Positions 1 through 56,962 of a DNA stretch of 64,000 bases are shown piece by piece. Source of the DNA: an uncultured Bacillales bacterium (GTDB taxonomy: Bacteria > Bacillota_I > Bacilli_A > RFN20 > CAG-826); NCBI GenBank assembly GCA_946630435.1, contig CAMOYS010000001.1, positions 7,433 through 71,432 on the forward strand. The letters are read 5' to 3'. The notes below the pieces were generated by a model. It was not told the DNA's origin. It made no database searches and saw nothing but the letters and a program-made list of their open reading frames with translations. The position numbers were made by a program, and so were the translations under genes. Every line of letters begins with the position of its first letter. Within the stretch, counting starts at the first letter, position 1.

Positions 1-533
1 CTTCTAACTATAAAGAAGCTCCAGACTTTGGTGCCTTAGGTGGTGGTGGACATTACGCTCACTTACTTAAAGAACTCGGTGGTCCTGATTTAGAAGGTGC
101 TGGTTTCTCTTTTGGTCTTGAAAGAGTGGCAAGCCTTTGTCAAATCATCTTTAAAGAAGAAATTGAAAAATATCAAGAATCACTCGACTTCTATGTTGTT
201 GGTTTGAATGATGAAAATATTCAAAACAACTTTAAACTCATCACTTCTTTAAGATTAGAAGGCTTTATCAGTGACATGAATTACGAAGTAAAATCAATGA
301 AATCAATCTTTAAATACGCTTCTAAGATTGGTTCTAAATTCGTTATTATCGCTGGTGATGATGAAATGAATAAAGGTATTGTAAGAGTGAAAAATATGCT
401 CACTGAAGAACAATATGATGTTCCTTATGATGATCAATTATTCGCTAAATTACATGACTTAATGAAAGAATATTACGAAAAACGCTTCAATGATAATAGT
501 GAAGTTGAAGAAGAAAGTGGAGATATAAATTAA
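1..533 (+). CDS. hisS: histidyl-tRNA synthetase, 3' partial (motif 3 plus anticodon-binding domain)
   Basis: The frame is open from base 3. The translation SNYKEAPDFGALGGGGHYAHLLKELGGPDLEGAGFSFGLERV matches the class II HisRS GGGRYD...G.ERL region, followed by an anticodon-binding domain. hisS-aspS adjacency is conserved in Firmicutes. Confidence 0.8.
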   Translation, partial: SNYKEAPDFGALGGGGHYAHLLKELGGPDLEGAGFSFGLERVASLCQIIFKEEIEKYQESLDFYVVGLNDENIQNNFKLITSLRLEGFISDMNYEVKSMKSIFKYASKIGSKFVIIAGDDEMNKGIVRVKNMLTEEQYDVPYDDQLFAKLHDLMKEYYEKRFNDNSEVEEESGDIN

Positions 534-534
534 T

Positions 535-2256
535 ATGGAAAGAACATGTTATAATGCCGAACTTTCTAAAGAAAACGTTGGTCAAAACGTCTCTTTAGTG
601 GGTTGGGTAAGTAAGAAAAGAGATTTAGGGGCTTTTAAATTTATTGACCTCCGTGATAGAAGTGGCATCGTCCAACTTTTTATCCCAGAAGGTTTAGAAA
701 TTCCTGATGTCCGTAACGAATACGTTATCGGTGTTAAAGGAACTGTTAGAGCTAAAGAAGTCGCTAACAAGAATTTAAAGACTGGCGAAATCGAAGTGGT
801 GGTCTCTTCTTTAGAAGTTTTCTCTAAAGCTAAAACCACACCTTTAATCATCGCTGATGATACTGACGCTCTTGAAGACGTTAGACTCAAATATCGTTAT
901 CTAGATTTAAGACGTCCAATCATGCAATCTTATCTTAAAAAGAGAGCTAAAATCGTTAAAGCCGCTCATGAATACTTCGATGAAAACGGCTTTATTGAAG
1001 TGGAAACTCCTTGCTTAATCCTTTCCACGCCTGAAGGTGCACGTGACTATATCGTTCCTTCTCGTGTCAATAAAGGTAGCTTCTACGCCTTGCCTCAATC
1101 TCCTCAACTCTTTAAGCAACTCTTAATGATCGGTGGTATGGAAAGATACTATCAAATCGCTCGTTGCTTTAGAGATGAAGACTTAAGACAAGATAGACAA
1201 CCAGAATTCACTCAAATCGACTTAGAAATGTCTTTCCTTGATCAAGATCAAATCTTAACCATCATGGAAGGATATCTTAAAAAGATATTTAAAGAAGTAG
1301 TGAATGAAGATATCATCACTCCACTTCGTCGTTTAGATTATAGTATCGCTGTCGATAAATATGGTTCCGATAAGCCAGATACAAGATTTGAGCTCTATCT
1401 TAACGAAGTTACTTCTATCTTAAATAAAGCTAACTTTGAAGCGTATAAATCCGCTAACACGATTAAAGCTTTAGTTATCCCAGGTAAAGCTAGCGACACT
1501 TCTCGTAAAGTTATCGATAGCTTAACTATGGAAGCTAAGAAATATGGTTTAGGTGGTTTAGGTGTTCTTAAATACTTAAACGGCACCTTAGAAGGTAGCA
1601 TTGCTAAATTCTTAAATGAAGATATTGTTAAGGAATTAGTTAACGCTTTATCCTTAAAGGATAATGACCTTGTTTTAATTGGCGCAGGCATGCATGATAA
1701 AGTTTGTTTTGCCTTAGGTGCGTTACGTAATAGATACGCGAATGAACTCGGCTTAATTAAACCAAATACCTATGATTTACTCTGGGTTGTTAACTTCCCA
1801 CTTTTCGAAAAGAAAGATGATGGCAGTTACGCGGCTTTACATCACCCATTCACTCGTCCAACTCCAGAAACTCAAGAATATTTATTCACTGACCCAAGCA
1901 AAGTCTTAAGCGCAGCTTATGATATTGTTATTAACGGTTATGAAGCTGGTGGTGGTTCTCTTCGTATCTATAACGAAGATCAACAAAAACAAGTCTTTAA
2001 TATCCTCGGATTCACTGAAGAAGATATTAAAAATAAATTCGGTTACTTTGTAAACGCTCTTGATTATGGTACCCCTCCACATGGTGGTATCGCCTTTGGC
2101 CTTGAAAGACTCTCTATGATTCTTTGTGGCACTGATAATATCCGTGATGTTATCGCCTTCCCAAAGAACTTAAGAGCGGTCTGTCCAATGTCAAATGCCC
2201 CTCAAAGAGTCGACAAAGCCCAACTTGATGATCTTGGCATCATGCTTAAAGAATAA
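535..2256 (+). CDS. aspS: aspartyl-tRNA synthetase
   Basis: 573 aa with an N-terminal OB fold and class II motifs (FRDEDLRQDRQPEFTQID, GGGSLRIY, GLERL). Confidence 0.95.
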   Translation: MERTCYNAELSKENVGQNVSLVGWVSKKRDLGAFKFIDLRDRSGIVQLFIPEGLEIPDVRNEYVIGVKGTVRAKEVANKNLKTGEIEVVVSSLEVFSKAKTTPLIIADDTDALEDVRLKYRYLDLRRPIMQSYLKKRAKIVKAAHEYFDENGFIEVETPCLILSTPEGARDYIVPSRVNKGSFYALPQSPQLFKQLLMIGGMERYYQIARCFRDEDLRQDRQPEFTQIDLEMSFLDQDQILTIMEGYLKKIFKEVVNEDIITPLRRLDYSIAVDKYGSDKPDTRFELYLNEVTSILNKANFEAYKSANTIKALVIPGKASDTSRKVIDSLTMEAKKYGLGGLGVLKYLNGTLEGSIAKFLNEDIVKELVNALSLKDNDLVLIGAGMHDKVCFALGALRNRYANELGLIKPNTYDLLWVVNFPLFEKKDDGSYAALHHPFTRPTPETQEYLFTDPSKVLSAAYDIVINGYEAGGGSLRIYNEDQQKQVFNILGFTEEDIKNKFGYFVNALDYGTPPHGGIAFGLERLSMILCGTDNIRDVIAFPKNLRAVCPMSNAPQRVDKAQLDDLGIMLKE

Positions 2257-4243: not shown

Positions 4244-4600
4244 ATGGCAGATTACATCCAAGTCCAAAACTATTCAAAATCTGGAGACCTTTACATTTCT
4301 CGTAAAATCTTTGAAAAGATAGCTACTGACGCGATTAAAAATGTGCCAGGGGTTTTACTTAAACCAAGAGGTAAGGCTCCAAAAAATAGAGTGTCCGCGC
4401 ACTTATCTCGTCCAATCCGTATTTCTTTTAGAAAAAATGGTCGAGTGGATGTTGATATCGATATTTCTTTAATCAAAGGTGCCAAAGCGGAACAAGTTTG
4501 CCTTCTTATTCAAGAAGAAGTATCAAACTCCTTACTCGCTTACACTGAAAGTGTACCATTCAATATTAATGTTAAAGTCGTGGAATTAGAAGATAAATAA
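4244..4600 (+). CDS. Asp23/Gls24 family alkaline-shock-like protein
   Basis: 118 aa with Asp23 family architecture. It sits just upstream of nusB, as yqhY does in Bacillus. Confidence 0.75.
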   Translation: MADYIQVQNYSKSGDLYISRKIFEKIATDAIKNVPGVLLKPRGKAPKNRVSAHLSRPIRISFRKNGRVDVDIDISLIKGAKAEQVCLLIQEEVSNSLLAYTESVPFNINVKVVELEDK

Positions 4601-36588: not shown

Positions 36589-36674
36589 TTTCTATACCTT
36601 CTTATATAAGCAATTGCGCAAAATTATAACTCGAAAAAGTTACTTGTCAACCATTTATAAGTGTATTTTTTAAA

Positions 36675-37400
36675 TTATTTGATTATTCTTCTTATGAAGG
36701 CGATGGATTTGAGGTTCAAGTCCACCGTATCAAGCGCGAATTGCTCTAATATATTTAAGACGTGTAATGATTCTTCTTTTGGAAGCACTGCTTTAGCGAA
36801 GTTATCGATATCTACTTTAAAGATGTAACGGAGGATCTTTAGTTCGTTTGCATTTAATTTAAGGTGAATAGAGGCGTCAAAACAGTTTTCACAAATAAAT
36901 CCTCCATCCATAGTAGAAAGGGCGGTAATTGCCTCTTTTTGGTGGCAAATTTGGCATGAATCAACATTGAGTCCATATCCAGTTGAGATTAAAACTTTCG
37001 CAAAATAGATTAAAGCAAGAGTTAAACCATCAAAGCCTTCATCAAGTAAAGAAAGAACCTTATCCAATATTGGATAAATGATCGAAGCTTCATCTTTAGA
37101 GATAATTTTATTAGTGATTTCTGATATAAAATCGAGGATCGCTAAGGAGGTTAAACCTTCCTTCGCATGCAGGTATGAATTTAATAAAGTGCCTGTTCGA
37201 AGGTTATAGCCTTCTTTTCCTTTAGATAGTTCAAGTCGAACTTTATTAAATTTAGTAACTAAAACTTTGTTTTTAGAATCAATCTTCATCACTCCTTTGG
37301 CTAAAAAGGAATGAATATTTTCGTTAGATAAAGCAGTCACCATCATATCATTATCTTTAAATGGTGACTCACGGAGGATGATTGCTTCAATTTCAAACAT
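36675..37400 (-). CDS. recO: DNA repair protein RecO
   Basis: 241 aa with an OB fold plus a C-terminal Cys4 zinc motif (CQICH...CENC). Confidence 0.8.
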   Translation of the reverse strand: MFEIEAIILRESPFKDNDMMVTALSNENIHSFLAKGVMKIDSKNKVLVTKFNKVRLELSKGKEGYNLRTGTLLNSYLHAKEGLTSLAILDFISEITNKIISKDEASIIYPILDKVLSLLDEGFDGLTLALIYFAKVLISTGYGLNVDSCQICHQKEAITALSTMDGGFICENCFDASIHLKLNANELKILRYIFKVDIDNFAKAVLPKEESLHVLNILEQFALDTVDLNLKSIAFIRRIIK

Positions 37401-37402
37401 AA

Positions 37403-38278
37403 TTAGTTTTTGTAGCCGAGTTCTTTTAATAAGCGAGGATTATTTAACCAGTCTTCTTTAACAGAAACGAATAATTCAAGATAGATTGGTTGATTATAAT
37501 ATTCTTCTAAATCTTTACGGGCTTTAATGCCGATAGCTTTAAGTCTCTTTCCTTCTTTACCGATGATTATTCCCTTATGGGAATTTTTATCAACGATAAT
37601 CGTTGCTTTAATATAAGTTGCCCCTTTAGAAGATTTAACAGAGTCCACTCTTACGGCGAGATAATGAGGGACTTCATCACGGAGAGTTAAAAGAAGCTTC
37701 TCTCTAATAACTTCCTTAATAAAGAAAGAAGAATCTTTATCACTCACTTGATCTTTTTCAAAATAACGTGGTCCTTCTTTCATGACCGCTTTAATTTCGT
37801 TAAGTAAAGTATCAACATTGAAGTTATCTAAAACAGACATCTCAATGATTTTAGCGTTTGGATACGCTAAAGCGTATTTGGCTTTGATATTCTCCGCTTC
37901 AGTGATACGGACTAAATCAATTTTATTTATAACAACGAAGAACGGACAATCTTTACGAAGAGTTTCCGCGATGTAACGATCTCCTTCATCAAATCTTCTT
38001 GAAGCATCGACAACAAGGACCACTGCATCCACTCCATTAACTGAAGTTAGAGCCTCTTTATTCATGTTTTCACCGAGTTTGGTGTTTGCTTTATGAATCC
38101 CAGGAGTGTCAACAAAAACGATCTGATATTCATCGTCATCATAGACTCCTCTAATAGAGTCTCTTGTTGTTTGAGCTTTATCAGTAACGATTGATAACTT
38201 AGTTTCGAGCAAAGCGTTAGTTAAAGTTGATTTACCAACATTAGGACGCCCCACAATTGCAACAAAACCAGTTTTCAT
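37403..38278 (-). CDS. era: GTPase Era
   Basis: 291 aa with G1 GRPNVGKST and a KH domain. Confidence 0.9.
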   Translation of the reverse strand: MKTGFVAIVGRPNVGKSTLTNALLETKLSIVTDKAQTTRDSIRGVYDDDEYQIVFVDTPGIHKANTKLGENMNKEALTSVNGVDAVVLVVDASRRFDEGDRYIAETLRKDCPFFVVINKIDLVRITEAENIKAKYALAYPNAKIIEMSVLDNFNVDTLLNEIKAVMKEGPRYFEKDQVSDKDSSFFIKEVIREKLLLTLRDEVPHYLAVRVDSVKSSKGATYIKATIIVDKNSHKGIIIGKEGKRLKAIGIKARKDLEEYYNQPIYLELFVSVKEDWLNNPRLLKELGYKN

Positions 38279-38679
38279 TATTCTAAATCCTCGCCTGAGA
38301 AAGCGAATGGAAGTAATTCACTAATAGTGGTTTCTTGGATGTTATCCTTAAGATTGCCCATATAAATTGGGGCATCTTTTGGGAATAATTCACTGATAAC
38401 TTGGCGGCACGCTCCACAAGGAGAACATGGTCCATCTGTATCAGCAGATAAAGCTAAGGCGACTAAGTCTTCCTTTTTACATCCATGCATATAAGCGTTA
38501 TATAAGGCGTTTCTTTCAGCGCACATACAAAGTGGATAAGAGGAATTTTCAATATTTGCCCCTAAAAATACTTCACCGCTTTTAGTTAAAACAGCAGCTC
38601 CAACAGCGAAATGGGAATATGGGGAATAAGAGAGCTTGCGGGCTTCTTTAGCTTTTTCATGTAAGGCAAATTTATCCAT
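38278..38679 (-). CDS. cdd: cytidine deaminase
   Basis: 133 aa with zinc ligands CAERNA and PCGACRQ. Confidence 0.9.
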   Translation of the reverse strand: MDKFALHEKAKEARKLSYSPYSHFAVGAAVLTKSGEVFLGANIENSSYPLCMCAERNALYNAYMHGCKKEDLVALALSADTDGPCSPCGACRQVISELFPKDAPIYMGNLKDNIQETTISELLPFAFSGEDLE

Positions 38680-39124
38680 CTTTTCTTTCTCCTAAAATCT
38701 TATCTTGAAGAGCAAACATCACTTCTTCATCCTCTTTCTTCATATGATCATATCCAAGTAAATGGAGTAAACCATGAACGAAGAGGAAGGACATTTCTCT
38801 ATTTAGAGAATGACCGTAGTCTTTAGCTTGTTCTTCCGCTTTTTGATACGAGATTATGATGCTTCCTAATGAGTTAGGCGCGTCTTCGTTAATTGTTTCT
38901 TCTTCATCATCATAAAAGGCGAAACTAATGACATCGGTTGGTCGATCGATACCTCGATAAGTCTTATTGATTTCGTGAATTCTATCATTATCCACGATTG
39001 AGACATCGATATAGTAATCGTCTTTAACCCCTACTTCCTTAAACACTTTATCCACTAAAGCAAGGAAAGTTGATTCATATTCATCAAATGATGAAGGTCC
39101 GTAATTAACAAAATCTAATTCCAT
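38672..39124 (-). CDS. ybeY: rRNA maturation endoribonuclease YbeY
   Basis: 150 aa with the HGLLHLLGYDH zinc motif. Confidence 0.9.
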   Translation of the reverse strand: MELDFVNYGPSSFDEYESTFLALVDKVFKEVGVKDDYYIDVSIVDNDRIHEINKTYRGIDRPTDVISFAFYDDEEETINEDAPNSLGSIIISYQKAEEQAKDYGHSLNREMSFLFVHGLLHLLGYDHMKKEDEEVMFALQDKILGERKDG

Positions 39125-39141
39125 ATTATCTCGTGGAGAAA

Positions 39142-40371
39142 TTATAACATATCATCTTCTTTTTTGTTAAGGTTAATTACATCCATGAATCTAGCCTTAG
39201 CTTTTTGGAAATCACTATAAGTGTTATCGTAATTTGATAAGGCGCTTAAATTCTCATAGAAATAGTTAAATAAGAAGAAATGGAAGATGACATAGTTCAC
39301 ACTGACGAGGTGATTCATGATCATGAGTAGGACCGCTAATGCCAGATTCACAAACATCATTAGGGTCCTACGCATGGAGATGTTGAAGCCAAATTTACGG
39401 GATTTTTGATTTAAGATAATTATTTCTGATATGAACTCTGGTTCTTCGAGTTCTTTGTCATTTAGAGTTTTTGTTTCGGCTTCACTTATCTCTTTAAATG
39501 ACTCTTTCTCTTTAGAGAATAATGTAAGAGCAAGAGTAATTACCATGATGATTATTAAAGGAAATGCGGAGTAGACATCGTTTAAAAGAAGTACAAAAAG
39601 AATTGATCCTAGGACTAAAAGGGATGCCTGAGAAGTACGTGGCAATTCGAATTGTAGACGTTTGGTTTTATGGTATAAGACGAAACGATCCTTTCTCTTA
39701 TTGCCGCAATTCTTAAAGAAATCACTCAGGTATTCACTATCAAACCATTCAATACACTTTAGGGTGTACCAATTGGTTAATAGTTCGGATAGGGAGAATA
39801 GTACGAGGAAAATAATCGGAAGAAAAATGAATTCATCAGCTTTTACAAAGTAAAGTCCGAAGGCAATTAGAGCAACCGAAAGGAAAGGCATAAGAGCAAG
39901 AAAGACAGACTTGCTAGTAGCTAGTAAATGCTGTTCTTTTGCTTCGACTTTACTGGCTTGACCGATGGAAACTATCTCCAAATATTCTCCATTAAATAAG
40001 GAATTAAAGGTAGAAAGTGACTCCTTTTTTATCCCCCTGGCTGGATCTAAGTATCTCACTTTATCTTTATTGATACTTAACACAACGACTGCGTGACGAG
40101 AGTACTTCTCGCCCCCATCATCAAGAAGCGCTATCAAAGGAAAATGATATTTCTCGTCCATGTGTGAATCTTTGTCACGAAAACCGTTCAGAATCAGCCC
40201 ATAACTGTGTGCGATATCGATAATTTCGTGAAATGAAAAATCCTCGTTGCGTTTGCCTGGCTTTTCAATGTATAAGTACCCCCTATTTTTATACACGTTC
40301 GCTAAAAGGATTTTTAAAGCAGCGAAACCGCAGTCGTGATCGTTGCCTTGGTAGATAAAGTATTTTTTCAT
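39142..40371 (-). CDS. peptidase C39-like domain fused to a polytopic membrane domain (no ABC ATPase)
   Basis: The N-terminal roughly 140 aa match the C39 bacteriocin-processing peptidase core (QGNDHDCGFAALKILL with the catalytic Cys, and HAVVVL...YLDPARG with the His). At least 5 transmembrane helices follow. The 409-aa protein ends with no nucleotide-binding domain. Confidence 0.6.
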   Translation of the reverse strand: MKKYFIYQGNDHDCGFAALKILLANVYKNRGYLYIEKPGKRNEDFSFHEIIDIAHSYGLILNGFRDKDSHMDEKYHFPLIALLDDGGEKYSRHAVVVLSINKDKVRYLDPARGIKKESLSTFNSLFNGEYLEIVSIGQASKVEAKEQHLLATSKSVFLALMPFLSVALIAFGLYFVKADEFIFLPIIFLVLFSLSELLTNWYTLKCIEWFDSEYLSDFFKNCGNKRKDRFVLYHKTKRLQFELPRTSQASLLVLGSILFVLLLNDVYSAFPLIIIMVITLALTLFSKEKESFKEISEAETKTLNDKELEEPEFISEIIILNQKSRKFGFNISMRRTLMMFVNLALAVLLMIMNHLVSVNYVIFHFFLFNYFYENLSALSNYDNTYSDFQKAKARFMDVINLNKKEDDML

Positions 40372-40542
40372 ACTAATTTCCCCCTACACCATTAAGTAGG
40401 GATTTTTTTGGAAAAAGTGCTCAAAAATTTTAGTATTAAAAAAGATGTATCTTTGATACATAATCACTAAATAAATTTTTCACATTTTTTCGAAAACTTA
40501 TTATTAAATGAAAAAAATTCCCGTTTTGGACAGGAACTTTTC

Positions 40543-41670
40543 TTATTTGTCTAAGCGTTTATCATCCATATAAACTTCATCGATTGTGCCACTAGCAATG
40601 AGCCTACCATCTTTAGAATAGAAGACTGCTTCTTGACCAGTTGTGACTGCTTTATATGGAGTGTAGGTACAGATTATTTTATCCCCTACTTTATCAATTG
40701 TAGCTGGGTGATCTTTTTGACGATATCTAAATTTAGCGCCTACTTCGATTGGGAATTCTTGGTTAGGGTCAATAACATTTATCTTGTTTACGATACATTT
40801 ATTAGACATTAAATAGGATTCGACTTCACCTCTTGTAACGTAAAGAATATTCTTTTTAGCGTCTTTTTTAACGATGAACCAACCGGTAGCTTTTTCACCG
40901 CTTATGCCACCTATTCCTAAGCCTTTATGTTGCCCGATAGTGTAATAATACACTCCGTTATGTTTTCCGATAACTTTATTAGTGTCAATATCAACAATAT
41001 CTCCTTTTTGAGCAGGGATATAATTCTTTAAGAATTCACGGAAATTTCTTTCCCCGATAAAACACACTCCAGTGGAATCTTTTTTATTTGCGACTGCTAA
41101 ATCTAGTTTACTAGCGATATCTCTTACTTCTTCTTTAGTGAGATCTGCTAATGGGAATAAACAAGATTTAATTTGCTCTTCATTTATTTGACTTAAGAAA
41201 TAAGTTTGGTCTTTATTATCATCCTTACATTTACATAAGAATTCGTGACCATTATATGTGGTTTTCTTCGCGTAATGCCCCATTGCAATCTTATCAAAGC
41301 CATTCTTCTTCGCGAACTCTAAAAAGGCATCAAACTTAATATATTTATTACATAAAATATCTGGGTTTGGGGTTCTTCCACATTCATATTCAGAGATAAA
41401 GAAAGAGAAGACATGGTCCCAATATTCTTTGATAAAGTCAACACGTAAAAGAGGAATATCAAGAGCCTTAGCCACTATTAAAGCGTCTTCATAATCCTTT
41501 TCTTGTGGGCATTGGTCATCTTTAATAGTAGGATTTCCTAAAATATCGTTATTAGTGAAAGCATCCCAGTTACGCATAAAACAGCCGGATACTTCATATC
41601 CTTCTTTCTTAAGAAGATAAGCCGCAACTGCGCTATCAACACCACCGGAAAGACCGACTAATACTTTCAT
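40543..41670 (-). CDS. mnmA: tRNA-specific 2-thiouridylase MnmA
   Basis: 375 aa with the PP-loop SGGVDS and a catalytic Cys pair. Confidence 0.9.
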   Translation of the reverse strand: MKVLVGLSGGVDSAVAAYLLKKEGYEVSGCFMRNWDAFTNNDILGNPTIKDDQCPQEKDYEDALIVAKALDIPLLRVDFIKEYWDHVFSFFISEYECGRTPNPDILCNKYIKFDAFLEFAKKNGFDKIAMGHYAKKTTYNGHEFLCKCKDDNKDQTYFLSQINEEQIKSCLFPLADLTKEEVRDIASKLDLAVANKKDSTGVCFIGERNFREFLKNYIPAQKGDIVDIDTNKVIGKHNGVYYYTIGQHKGLGIGGISGEKATGWFIVKKDAKKNILYVTRGEVESYLMSNKCIVNKINVIDPNQEFPIEVGAKFRYRQKDHPATIDKVGDKIICTYTPYKAVTTGQEAVFYSKDGRLIASGTIDEVYMDDKRLDK

Positions 41671-55804: not shown

Positions 55805-56962
55805 TTATTTAGCGAATTTCTTTTTGAATCTAGCGAATATTCCGTCATCATCTTTCTTCAATGTTTCACGGTATTTCTCTAATAATTCCTTCTGCTCTTT
55901 CGAGAGTTTTGTTGGAGTTTCGACTTTAATATGAATGTATTGATTTCCTGGAGTGCCTTTACGAAGATCCTTAATTCCTCTTCCTTTAAGAAGGAGAACC
56001 GCGGTAGGTTGAGTTCCTGCTGGGACATTGACTTCAACATCACCATAAACAGTTGGAACATCAATCTTAGTACCTAACGTAACATCGATAAAGTTAAGTG
56101 GGACATCAATATGGATATCATTGCCATCACGTTTGAAGTATTCATGTGGATTAATGATGATTTCTAAGTATAAGTCGCCATTTTCACCACCGTTATAGCC
56201 TCTAGAGCCCTTACCTTTAACGCGGATTTGTTGACCAGCGTTAATACCAGCAGGAATATTGACTTCAATATCCTTTTTAACGCGGTTATAACCTTTACCG
56301 TTACAGTCGTGGCACATATCGGTGATAACTTTGCCGCTTCCTTGACATTCAGGACAGACTGACTCATTTTCCATCATCCCGAACATAGTTCGTTGAGTGG
56401 TTCTAATGTAACCACTACCATTACATTTAGTACAAGTTTTTAAATGAGTTCCATCTTTTGCTCCCGTACCTTTACATGATTGACATTCTTCATCATAAGT
56501 TACTGGAATCTTAACTTTCTTCCCGAGGACAGCGTCCATGAAGTTAACTTTGACTCTCATAAGAGAGTCTTCGCCTCTTCTTGGTCCAGAGTGAGAGCCT
56601 CTTCCACTAGAGAAACCACCCATACCTCCGCCACCGAAGAATTGGTTAAAGATATCATTTAAGTTAACTCCACCAAAGCCAGCTCCTGAGAAACCTGAGC
56701 CACTGAATGGATTACCTTGACCACCGGTTGAGGCGCCTTGTTCAAACGCAGCCATACCGAACTGATCATACATTTCTCTTTTCTTATCATCATAAAGAAC
56801 ATCGTAAGCTTCTTGAACTTCTTTGAACTTCTCTTCTGCTCCTGGTTCTTTATTGATATCTGGGTGATACTTTTTGGCTAATTTACGGTAAGCAGATTTA
56901 ATTTCATCTTTAGATGCACCTTTAGTTAAACCTAAAACTTCGTAGAAATCTCTTTTAGCCAT
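55805..56962 (-). CDS. dnaJ: chaperone DnaJ
   Basis: J domain (HPD), G/F region and four CxxCxGxG zinc-finger repeats. Confidence 0.95.

Follow-up and report, generated by a model that had tools for sequence, protein, structure and literature searches.

A C39 peptidase joined to a predicted exporter-type membrane domain without an ATPase, encoded next to ybeY in uncultured Bacilli

Peptidase-containing ABC transporters (PCATs) are defined by the coupling of leader cleavage to ATP-driven export. In PCAT1 of Clostridium thermocellum (PDB 4RY2, 6V9Z), the leader is bound and cleaved while the transporter faces inward and the peptidase is docked; ATP is required only for the later extrusion (PMC11491471). 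Isolated C39 peptidase domains are active proteases without a transmembrane domain (TMD) or a nucleotide-binding domain (NBD), and the roles of the active-site residues have been described for LahT (PMC6363468). Membrane domains can likewise act without an ATPase: SbmA and BacA, the SbmA-like peptide transporters (SLiPT), are homodimers akin to ABC membrane domains that transport peptides with the proton gradient (PMC8442886, PMC13316013). Here we describe a gene that we call C39-TM, found in a stretch of 64,000 nucleotides (the window) from an uncultured Bacillales bacterium (assembly GCA_946630435.1, contig CAMOYS010000001.1). It lies at 39142-40371 on the minus strand, directly upstream of ybeY, and its product consists of an N-terminal C39 peptidase and a membrane domain; the family to which it belongs thus keeps a protease and a membrane domain and drops the motor. 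The nearest named family, NF045998 ('Mbov_0121 family peptidase domain-containing ABC transporter'), comprises mollicute proteins such as 0401 of JCVI-syn3A, which occupies the same slot before ybeY and era, and MG_390 of Mycoplasma genitalium; unlike the C39-TM family, the mollicute proteins are full length (615-673 aa) and carry a fused ATPase. The window has a GC content of 35% and is 99% identical to a rumen metagenome-assembled contig, CADAIJ010000001.1, labelled uncultured Erysipelotrichaceae bacterium RUG13318.

The open reading frame (ORF) had been proposed in an original prediction made from the sequence alone, which did not give its strand. The ORF list and the translation bear it out, with an ATG start and 409 amino acids, and an identical protein is present in the public collection (P0001). 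The two C39 signature strings quoted in that prediction are both found in the protein, QGNDHDCGFAALKILL at residues 8-23 and HAVVVLSINKDKVRYLDPARG at residues 93-113. The domain search that it had called for gave a match to PF03412 (Peptidase_C39) at residues 3-132 with 51.7 bits (gathering cutoff 22; E 1.1e-13), and the Pfam scan of the protein returned no other domain. All 22 aligned family members match PF03412 as well, with a best E of 1.1e-19. When the family profile was compared with peptidases of known structure, it aligned with the LahT peptidase domain LahT150 (6mpz) at E 2.6e-14 and with PCAT1 at E 3e-10. Gln8, Cys14, His93 and Asp109 fall on Gln21, Cys27, His101 and Asp117 of LahT, and the spacing is the same as in LahT, with 6 residues from Gln to Cys and 16 from His to Asp. 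The protein thus shares with PCAT1, ComA and LahT an N-terminal C39 domain with the same Gln/Cys/His/Asp set and the same spacing. The Asp lies in a D-P-x-x-G motif in which the proline (P110) is kept in 280 and the glycine (G113) in 282 of 288 full-length members, the alignment from which all conservation counts in this work are taken. In the structure model described below, the peptidase domain superposes on the 6mpz and ComA peptidase domains with Foldseek template modelling scores (TM-scores) of 0.72-0.77, normalised to the target.

The claim that no NBD follows is also borne out, as the protein stops after the sixth transmembrane (TM) helix and one further helix. Residues 8-405 align to positions 2-455 of the 673 positions of NF045998, and the alignment stops at the very point at which this profile passes into the ATPase. 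A detached remnant of the ATPase would find no space, as ybeY starts 17 nt past the C39-TM stop codon. The 64-kb window is devoid of ABC signature motifs, and in ~100 loci we found no NBD gene adjoining the family gene. In 805 kb of related loci, matches to an ABC signature with Walker B are confined to three, at L006:~1188, L007:~1215 and L018:~1233 (plus strand), ~4.8 kb upstream of the C39-TM gene; all have the form LSGGE...DEPTNHL, which we take to be typical of ABC-F translation factors and not of transporter ATPases. Since the ATPase that defines these transporters is missing, the C39-TM protein, which would work like the first two-thirds of a PCAT, does not strictly count as a PCAT or as an ABC transporter.

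The original prediction had at least five TM helices after the peptidase. Helices do follow it, and their number is six in the AlphaFold2 model of the window protein, which was built from a 22-sequence alignment and has a predicted local distance difference test (pLDDT) score of 87.2 and a predicted TM-score (pTM) of 0.78. In this model the alpha/beta peptidase domain and a short linker are followed by six long helices (residues 152-174, 183-218, 223-264, 266-304, 310-352 and 358-379) that pair in sequence order into three hairpins, and TM2 to TM5 extend into the cytoplasm. The predicted topology has the short loops (175-182, 265 and 353-357) outside, and the long loops, rich in Lys and Arg, together with both termini in the cytoplasm. 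The peptidase, which has no signal peptide, is placed in the cytoplasm on the strength of this topology, as in PCATs. A Foldseek search of the PDB with the model gave PCAT1 (6v9z) as the best match across the peptidase and the membrane domain (E 2.3e-13, query-normalised TM-score 0.62, 467 columns), and inward-facing, substrate-bound states of PCAT1 outscored the outward-facing state 7t54 (0.48). HlyB ranked next, followed by the membrane domains of TM287/288, IrtAB, BmrCD, ComA, McjD and TAP. A second model, of P0098, which shares only 22% identity with the window protein (pLDDT 83.4), again had 6v9z as its best match (E 1e-14), followed by MsbA, BmrA, TAP and TmrAB. The membrane domain is thus predicted to take the type-IV ABC-exporter fold of PCAT1, with six helices, and the peptidase is predicted to be docked on it in a similar place, as in the inward-facing, substrate-bound transporter. 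Compared with PCATs, the peptidase and membrane part is ~60-70 residues shorter, the NBD is absent, and the tips of the intracellular loops are short and variable.

The family is large and so far unnamed. Relatives numbered 67 in a word-indexed search and 301 in a profile search; all of the 67 and the best 120 of the 301 have PF03412 only and measure 388-409 aa, except P0002, a 302-aa fragment. An exhaustive HMMER search of 1.84 billion representatives retrieved 320 clusters (50% identity) at E<=1e-30, and the best 150 of these are 302-419 aa long (147 of them 355-419 aa), with the profile matched along most or all of their length. In public collections the members bear generic labels, either 'hypothetical protein' or 'cysteine peptidase family C39 domain-containing protein'. 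The 288 aligned members share 20-42% identity with the window protein, with a median of 25% (35% for the peptidase, 21% for the membrane domain), and fall into 40 clusters at ~30% identity. The C39-TM protein evolves much faster than the products of its neighbours, with identities of 26-37% against 60-67% for YbeY, 60-74% for Era and 81-86% for GlyS. Within this divergence, the four active-site residues and a group of four residues of the membrane domain (Asp211, Lys237, Asn264 and Glu299) are nearly invariant (Table 1), and the distance between Lys237 and Asn264 is constant at 27 residues in 287 of the 288 members. As judged from the alignment, the catalytic residues and these four membrane-domain residues are under strong purifying selection across a very large and divergent family. 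Conservation within the membrane domain is lowest at the tips of the intracellular loops, with 1.19-1.25 bits against 1.7-2.0 bits for the TM cores; they differ in length among members, the gap fraction reaching 47% at the tip of intracellular loop 2 (ICL2), and in both models they are turns of 4-5 residues and not coupling helices.

Within NCBIfam, NF045998 is the best family for all 22 members (best E 8.5e-17) and for 10 of 10 medoids of the most divergent sub-clades (E 1e-8 to 8e-21), where it ranks above the bacteriocin-type PCAT models. Its cutoff of 500 bits is not reached, the window protein scoring 31.1 bits (positions 2-455) and the best member 74 bits; the FapD model NF058616 comes third among the NCBIfam matches, with 24.6 bits against a cutoff of 330. 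FapD, from the Fap amyloid system, and LahT150 resemble the C39-TM protein in having a C39 domain without an ATPase, and differ from it in having no six-helix membrane domain. In JCVI-syn3A, 0401 is listed as an 'uncharacterized peptidase' (246266-248114, 1848 bp, non-essential), and it is followed by ybeY (0402, 248118-248613) and era (0403, 248616-249522), both of which are essential (Breuer et al. 2019, supplementary file 3; PMC6609329). It has been described as a C39-domain homologue of the sublancin transporter, in a genome that has no candidate double-glycine (GG) peptide, as is the case for other mycoplasmas (PMC6609329). The 0401 gene (~615 aa) ends 4 bp before ybeY, with era next, and so occupies the same slot as the C39-TM gene. 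In M. genitalium, MG_388 and MG_387 are presumably ybeY and era. MG_390 ('sunT') is co-transcribed with MG_389 and is part of the sigma-20 recombination regulon; a deletion mutant shows about tenfold less recombination-based transformation, with growth unaffected (PMC4446450, PMC6105099).

A full-length form also occurs at a metagenomic locus. At L098 (YbeY 53% identical), an ABC protein of at least 512 aa (3-1541, plus strand) ends 4 nt before ybeY-cdd-era. It contains PF00664 and PF00005, with the Walker A motif GVTGCGKST and the variant signature LSLGQ, and its best NCBIfam match is NF045998 (213.9 bits, profile positions 166-665 of 673); the contig stops short of the N-terminus, the expected place of a C39 domain. 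Together with 0401, this protein indicates that the full-length and the ATPase-less forms share one slot in related organisms, and the comparison documents the ATPase-less gene as a stable derived form. The profile search and a single-sequence search with P0166, the member nearest to NF045998, returned ATPase-less proteins only and no full-length mollicute homologue.

Whether the gene is conserved at this locus, a comparison that the original prediction had proposed, was examined in 19 GTDB-species genomes and several metagenomic contigs that span at least 7 deep sub-clades. C39-TM, ybeY, cdd, era, recO and glyS, followed by dnaG and sigA, are found in that order in each of the related loci with flanking DNA. 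The gap from the C39-TM stop codon to ybeY ranges from -19 to +57 nt in 28 loci, and in some copies the two genes overlap (-4 in L018 and -19 in L027). The upstream neighbour varies, being mnmA in the window, rpsU in many relatives and dnaJ in others, so the adjacency to ybeY has outlived rearrangement of the other flank. As a check that takes its start from a neighbour instead of the C39-TM protein, we also carried out a metagenome scan anchored on YbeY motifs, which yielded 80 loci (YbeY 47-100% identical), 76 of them with usable upstream DNA. A complete ATPase-less family gene stands directly before ybeY in 48 of the 76, and 17 more have a copy cut by the contig end (65/76). Five further loci have a family gene at ybeY that falls outside our strict criteria because it is short, is split or overlaps the ybeY start call (L031, L041, L051, L082 and L095); the copy in L031 is split into two ORFs. 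This deep adjacency marks the family as core genes of the lineage and not as bacteriocin accessories. The gene also differs from those of PCATs in that no GG-leader gene is nearby and that its surroundings are a housekeeping operon, whereas PCAT genes belong to bacteriocin or quorum-sensing clusters. Our literature searches found no paper on ATPase-less PCATs or on a linkage between C39 and ybeY.

Two loci of the scan differ in arrangement. On a 108-kb contig, L061:3429-3920 (plus strand), 72 nt upstream of ybeY, encodes 163 aa that comprise the C39 domain and one TM helix; it may have been truncated recently or be a naturally minimal form. At L105:2871-4001 (plus strand), an extra ORF of 376 aa, with a TM-rich C-terminus and no Pfam or NCBIfam match, separates the C39-TM gene from ybeY, an interruption of the adjacency seen at no other locus.

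Table 1. Positions of the C39-TM gene, its domains and key codons, and neighbouring features in the window
Feature	Position	Strand	Basis or remark
C39-TM coding sequence, C39 peptidase and six-TM protein without NBD	39142-40371	-	ORF list, translation
Peptidase C39 domain (residues 3-132), predicted cytoplasmic	39976-40365	-	PF03412 match
Gln8 codon, oxyanion-hole Gln (LahT Gln21)	40348-40350	-	Gln in 285/288 members
Cys14 codon, catalytic nucleophile (LahT Cys27)	40330-40332	-	Cys in 287/288 members
His93 codon, catalytic His (LahT His101)	40093-40095	-	His in 287/288 members
Asp109 codon, catalytic Asp (LahT Asp117), in D-P-x-x-G motif	40045-40047	-	Asp in 285/288 members
Predicted six-helix transmembrane domain (residues 152-379) with cytoplasmic helical extensions	39235-39918	-	AlphaFold2 model, Foldseek
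Asp211 codon, near-invariant, cytoplasmic extension of TM2	39739-39741	-	Asp in 281/288 members
Lys237 codon, groups with Asp211	39661-39663	-	Lys in 278/288 members
Asn264 codon, groups with Asp211	39580-39582	-	Asn in 282/288 members
Glu299 codon, groups with Asp211	39475-39477	-	Glu in 282/288 members
Predicted C-terminal cytoplasmic helix (residues 381-407), where full-length relatives run on into the NBD	39151-39231	-	AlphaFold2 secondary structure, NF045998 alignment
ybeY	38672-39124	-	PF02130, 156.7 bits
cdd	38278-38679	-	Pfam; overlaps ybeY by 8 nt
era	37403-38278	-	Pfam; overlapping or abutting neighbours
recO	36675-37400	-	Pfam; overlapping or abutting neighbours
Terminator-like hairpin and U-run right after mnmA stop	40510-40542	-	Fold of 40360-40545: 13-bp stem, then U7; region z-score -3.9
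6-bp hairpin CCCUAC...GUAGGG, 3' arm over Shine-Dalgarno-like GGGGG 8-12 nt before ATG	40382-40401	-	Sequence, inverted repeat, fold

In the window, the downstream genes named in the original prediction are confirmed by Pfam, and its placing of the gene at the head of a ybeY-cdd-era-recO operon fits the terminator-like hairpin after mnmA and a downstream spacing of at most 17 nt; from its sequence features, the C39-TM gene fits the position of first cistron of the ybeY string. The 171-nt leader contains, besides the hairpin over the Shine-Dalgarno-like sequence, a second small hairpin followed by a U-run at 40440-40470 on the minus strand (AUGUAUC-AAA-GAUACAU-CUUUUUU), and both hairpins may be regulatory. 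A sigma-70 scan of this 171-nt gap revealed no convincing promoter, and an Rfam scan of the 64-kb window at gathering thresholds gave no match, including none to a T-box upstream of glyS. A promoter-like sequence (TTAACA-18-TATAAT with a TG extension, 39141-39170, minus strand) lies in the last C39-TM codons, its -10 element overlapping the stop codon; it could be an internal ybeY promoter or a chance match in AT-rich DNA. A perfect 12/12 sigma-70 consensus (TTGACA-16-TATAAT, 36623-36650, minus strand) is present in the 86-nt gap between recO and glyS. In contrast to several relatives, in which ybeY and cdd are fused into one gene (PF02130 plus dCMP_cyt_deam, ~282-297 aa; L021:7214-8062, L022:1745-2593, L005, L006, L007, L018 and L019), the two are separate in the window. 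The dnaJ gene, which in the relatives compared (L023, L025 and L028) stands directly upstream or within 6 kb, is located in the window at 55805-56962 (minus strand), 15 kb from the C39-TM gene. A tblastn search of the window for the relatives' intervening genes rpsU, rpmF, deoC, mtaB and rsmE and the gene of a TM2-domain protein found none of them, which indicates that the genome has been rearranged upstream of the C39-TM gene. The TM2-domain protein (PF05154, ~145 aa) is encoded 3-5 kb upstream of the C39-TM gene in relatives (L010:2226-2663 and L021:2280-2708, with orthologues in L003, L006, L012, L015-L017, L020, L026 and L027). Its N-terminus, CxxC-x11-CPFCGG, fits a loose double-glycine pattern; it looks like a zinc ribbon, and the fit is probably due to chance.

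Taken together, these results argue that the gene is probably a PCAT derivative that has lost its ATPase and acts as a membrane-anchored peptidase of the double-glycine type. The protein would be a membrane-anchored endopeptidase, probably homodimeric, whose C39 groove would bind the leader-type helix of some peptide or protein; cleavage after a motif resembling Gly-Gly would then take place at the cytoplasmic opening of the membrane domain. Since the protein brings along no ATPase, a product that crosses by way of the membrane domain would have to do so passively or with protons as the driving force, for which SbmA and BacA provide a precedent; alternatively, the membrane domain may serve only as an anchor, a dimerisation scaffold and a platform that positions the substrate. 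The precedent is an analogy of principle and not a kinship: SbmA and BacA, unlike the C39-TM protein, have no peptidase domain and are importers, they are absent among the top 50 Foldseek matches listed for each model (29 and 44 at E<=1e-3), and neither Pfam nor NCBIfam gave a match to them. The constant position and the core-gene status favour a housekeeping substrate over a strain-specific bacteriocin.

Several points weigh against this reading. PF00664, the ABC membrane-domain family of Pfam, is matched by none of the 22 members even at E<=1, and a comparison of the family with the TMD and NBD protein of L098 by hhalign gave nothing significant. With both of these sequence-level comparisons negative, the fold assignment rests on the two AlphaFold models and Foldseek, so that the proposed homology of the membrane domain is one of predicted structure, and the dimeric state and the docking geometry are likewise taken from models of the monomer. 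The ATPase search covered 64 kb of the genome, and a separate ATPase gene may be present elsewhere. The original prediction had suggested a genome-wide look for small ORFs with double-glycine leaders; a pattern search of all small ORFs in the 64 kb of the window and in the related loci yielded no credible candidate, and a substrate gene may lie farther away. Mycoplasmas are reported to have no GG-peptide candidates (PMC6609329). One match in the window, at 4391-4600, depends on an internal start and was judged to be a chance hit.

The original prediction had also raised the idea that the gene is a remnant of an exporter, and had named relatives carrying a full exporter at this position as the sign of a truncated pseudogene. 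Such relatives exist in 0401 and in L098, which hold the same slot, and as evolutionary history the idea stands. A functionless gene, decaying after deletion of the ATPase from a bacteriocin or peptide exporter, does not follow from it, even though damaged copies are found in L031 and L061. The gene is not a pseudogene, because the form without ATPase makes up a large family of constant length that is under purifying selection and has an invariant catalytic tetrad: the length and the domain boundary are constant over hundreds of divergent clusters, the tetrad and the four membrane-domain residues are nearly invariant at a median identity of 25%, and no trace of an NBD is left in the -19 to +57 nt before ybeY. 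We consider decay scarcely credible. It is easier to imagine that the protein still belongs to an ATP-driven processing exporter, with an NBD encoded elsewhere that docks on the intracellular loops. ABC systems in which the TMD and the NBD are separate polypeptides are common, the models keep the cytoplasmic helical extensions of TM2 to TM5, and the nearly invariant Asp211, Lys237 and Glu299 sit in these extensions, where they could touch a partner. Neither an adjoining NBD gene in ~100 loci nor an ABC signature in the window supports such a partner, however, and the loop tips, where coupling helices would contact an NBD, are the least conserved part, bear indels and form short turns. The NBD is fused and not split off in the full-length relatives, and in one natural variant (L061) the protein is down to the C39 domain and a single TM helix. 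A partner ATPase acting in trans is thus unlikely in our view.

Two alternatives remain, and we hold each of them to be quite improbable. The Cys/His site may carry out another chemistry, such as transamidation, acyl transfer, removal of a modification or action on a non-peptide substrate, in which case the resemblance to PCATs in shape would reflect ancestry only. Breuer et al. proposed lipoyl-peptide transamidation for 0401 because no GG-leader candidates are known in mycoplasmas (PMC6609329), a non-peptidase activity is reported for a C39-like archaeal protein (PMC13642728), and the C39 domain of the family is closest to the mollicute clade and not to bacteriocin PCATs. These alternatives are speculative even for the mollicute proteins, however, and the family has kept the full Gln/Cys/His/Asp set with the spacing of GG peptidases and a peptidase domain that superposes on those of LahT and ComA (TM-scores as above). 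The other alternative is a functional tie to ybeY and era, in which the protein would mature, inactivate or tether a protein of ribosome biogenesis or translation and the adjacency would reflect co-regulation with 30S maturation. In other bacteria ybeY is typically flanked by membrane or PhoH-type partners. Here the adjacency reaches from Mycoplasma mycoides and JCVI-syn3A to uncultured gut Bacilli despite a rearranged upstream flank, and the overlap with ybeY in L018 and L027 suggests translational coupling. On the other hand, the whole region from dnaK to sigA is syntenic, so that the adjacency could simply have been inherited; YbeY and Era evolve much more slowly than the C39-TM protein; 0401 is non-essential in a genome in which ybeY and era are essential; and loss of MG_390, a member of the sigma-20 recombination regulon, affects transformation and not growth (PMC4446450).

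The preferred reading, a membrane-anchored peptidase derived from a PCAT, can be extended to an ATP-independent PCAT, either a peptidase-gated conduit that is passive or proton-driven or a purely proteolytic machine, which would mature a housekeeping substrate linked to ybeY, era and recO or to a role in recombination or competence like that of MG_390. We offer this extension tentatively, as possible but doubtful.

The family raises the question of what an exporter-type membrane domain does without ATP. For the orphan C39-ABC proteins of mollicutes, including 0401 and MG_390, it amounts to a natural 'NBD-deletion experiment'. Should its function prove ordinary, for example with an NBD acting in trans, the outcome would still be a new annotated family. 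If the extension to an ATP-independent PCAT is true, the repeated loss of the ATPase would mean that the orphan mollicute PCATs, 0401 among them, have proteolysis at the membrane, rather than export powered by ATP, as their ancestral core function.

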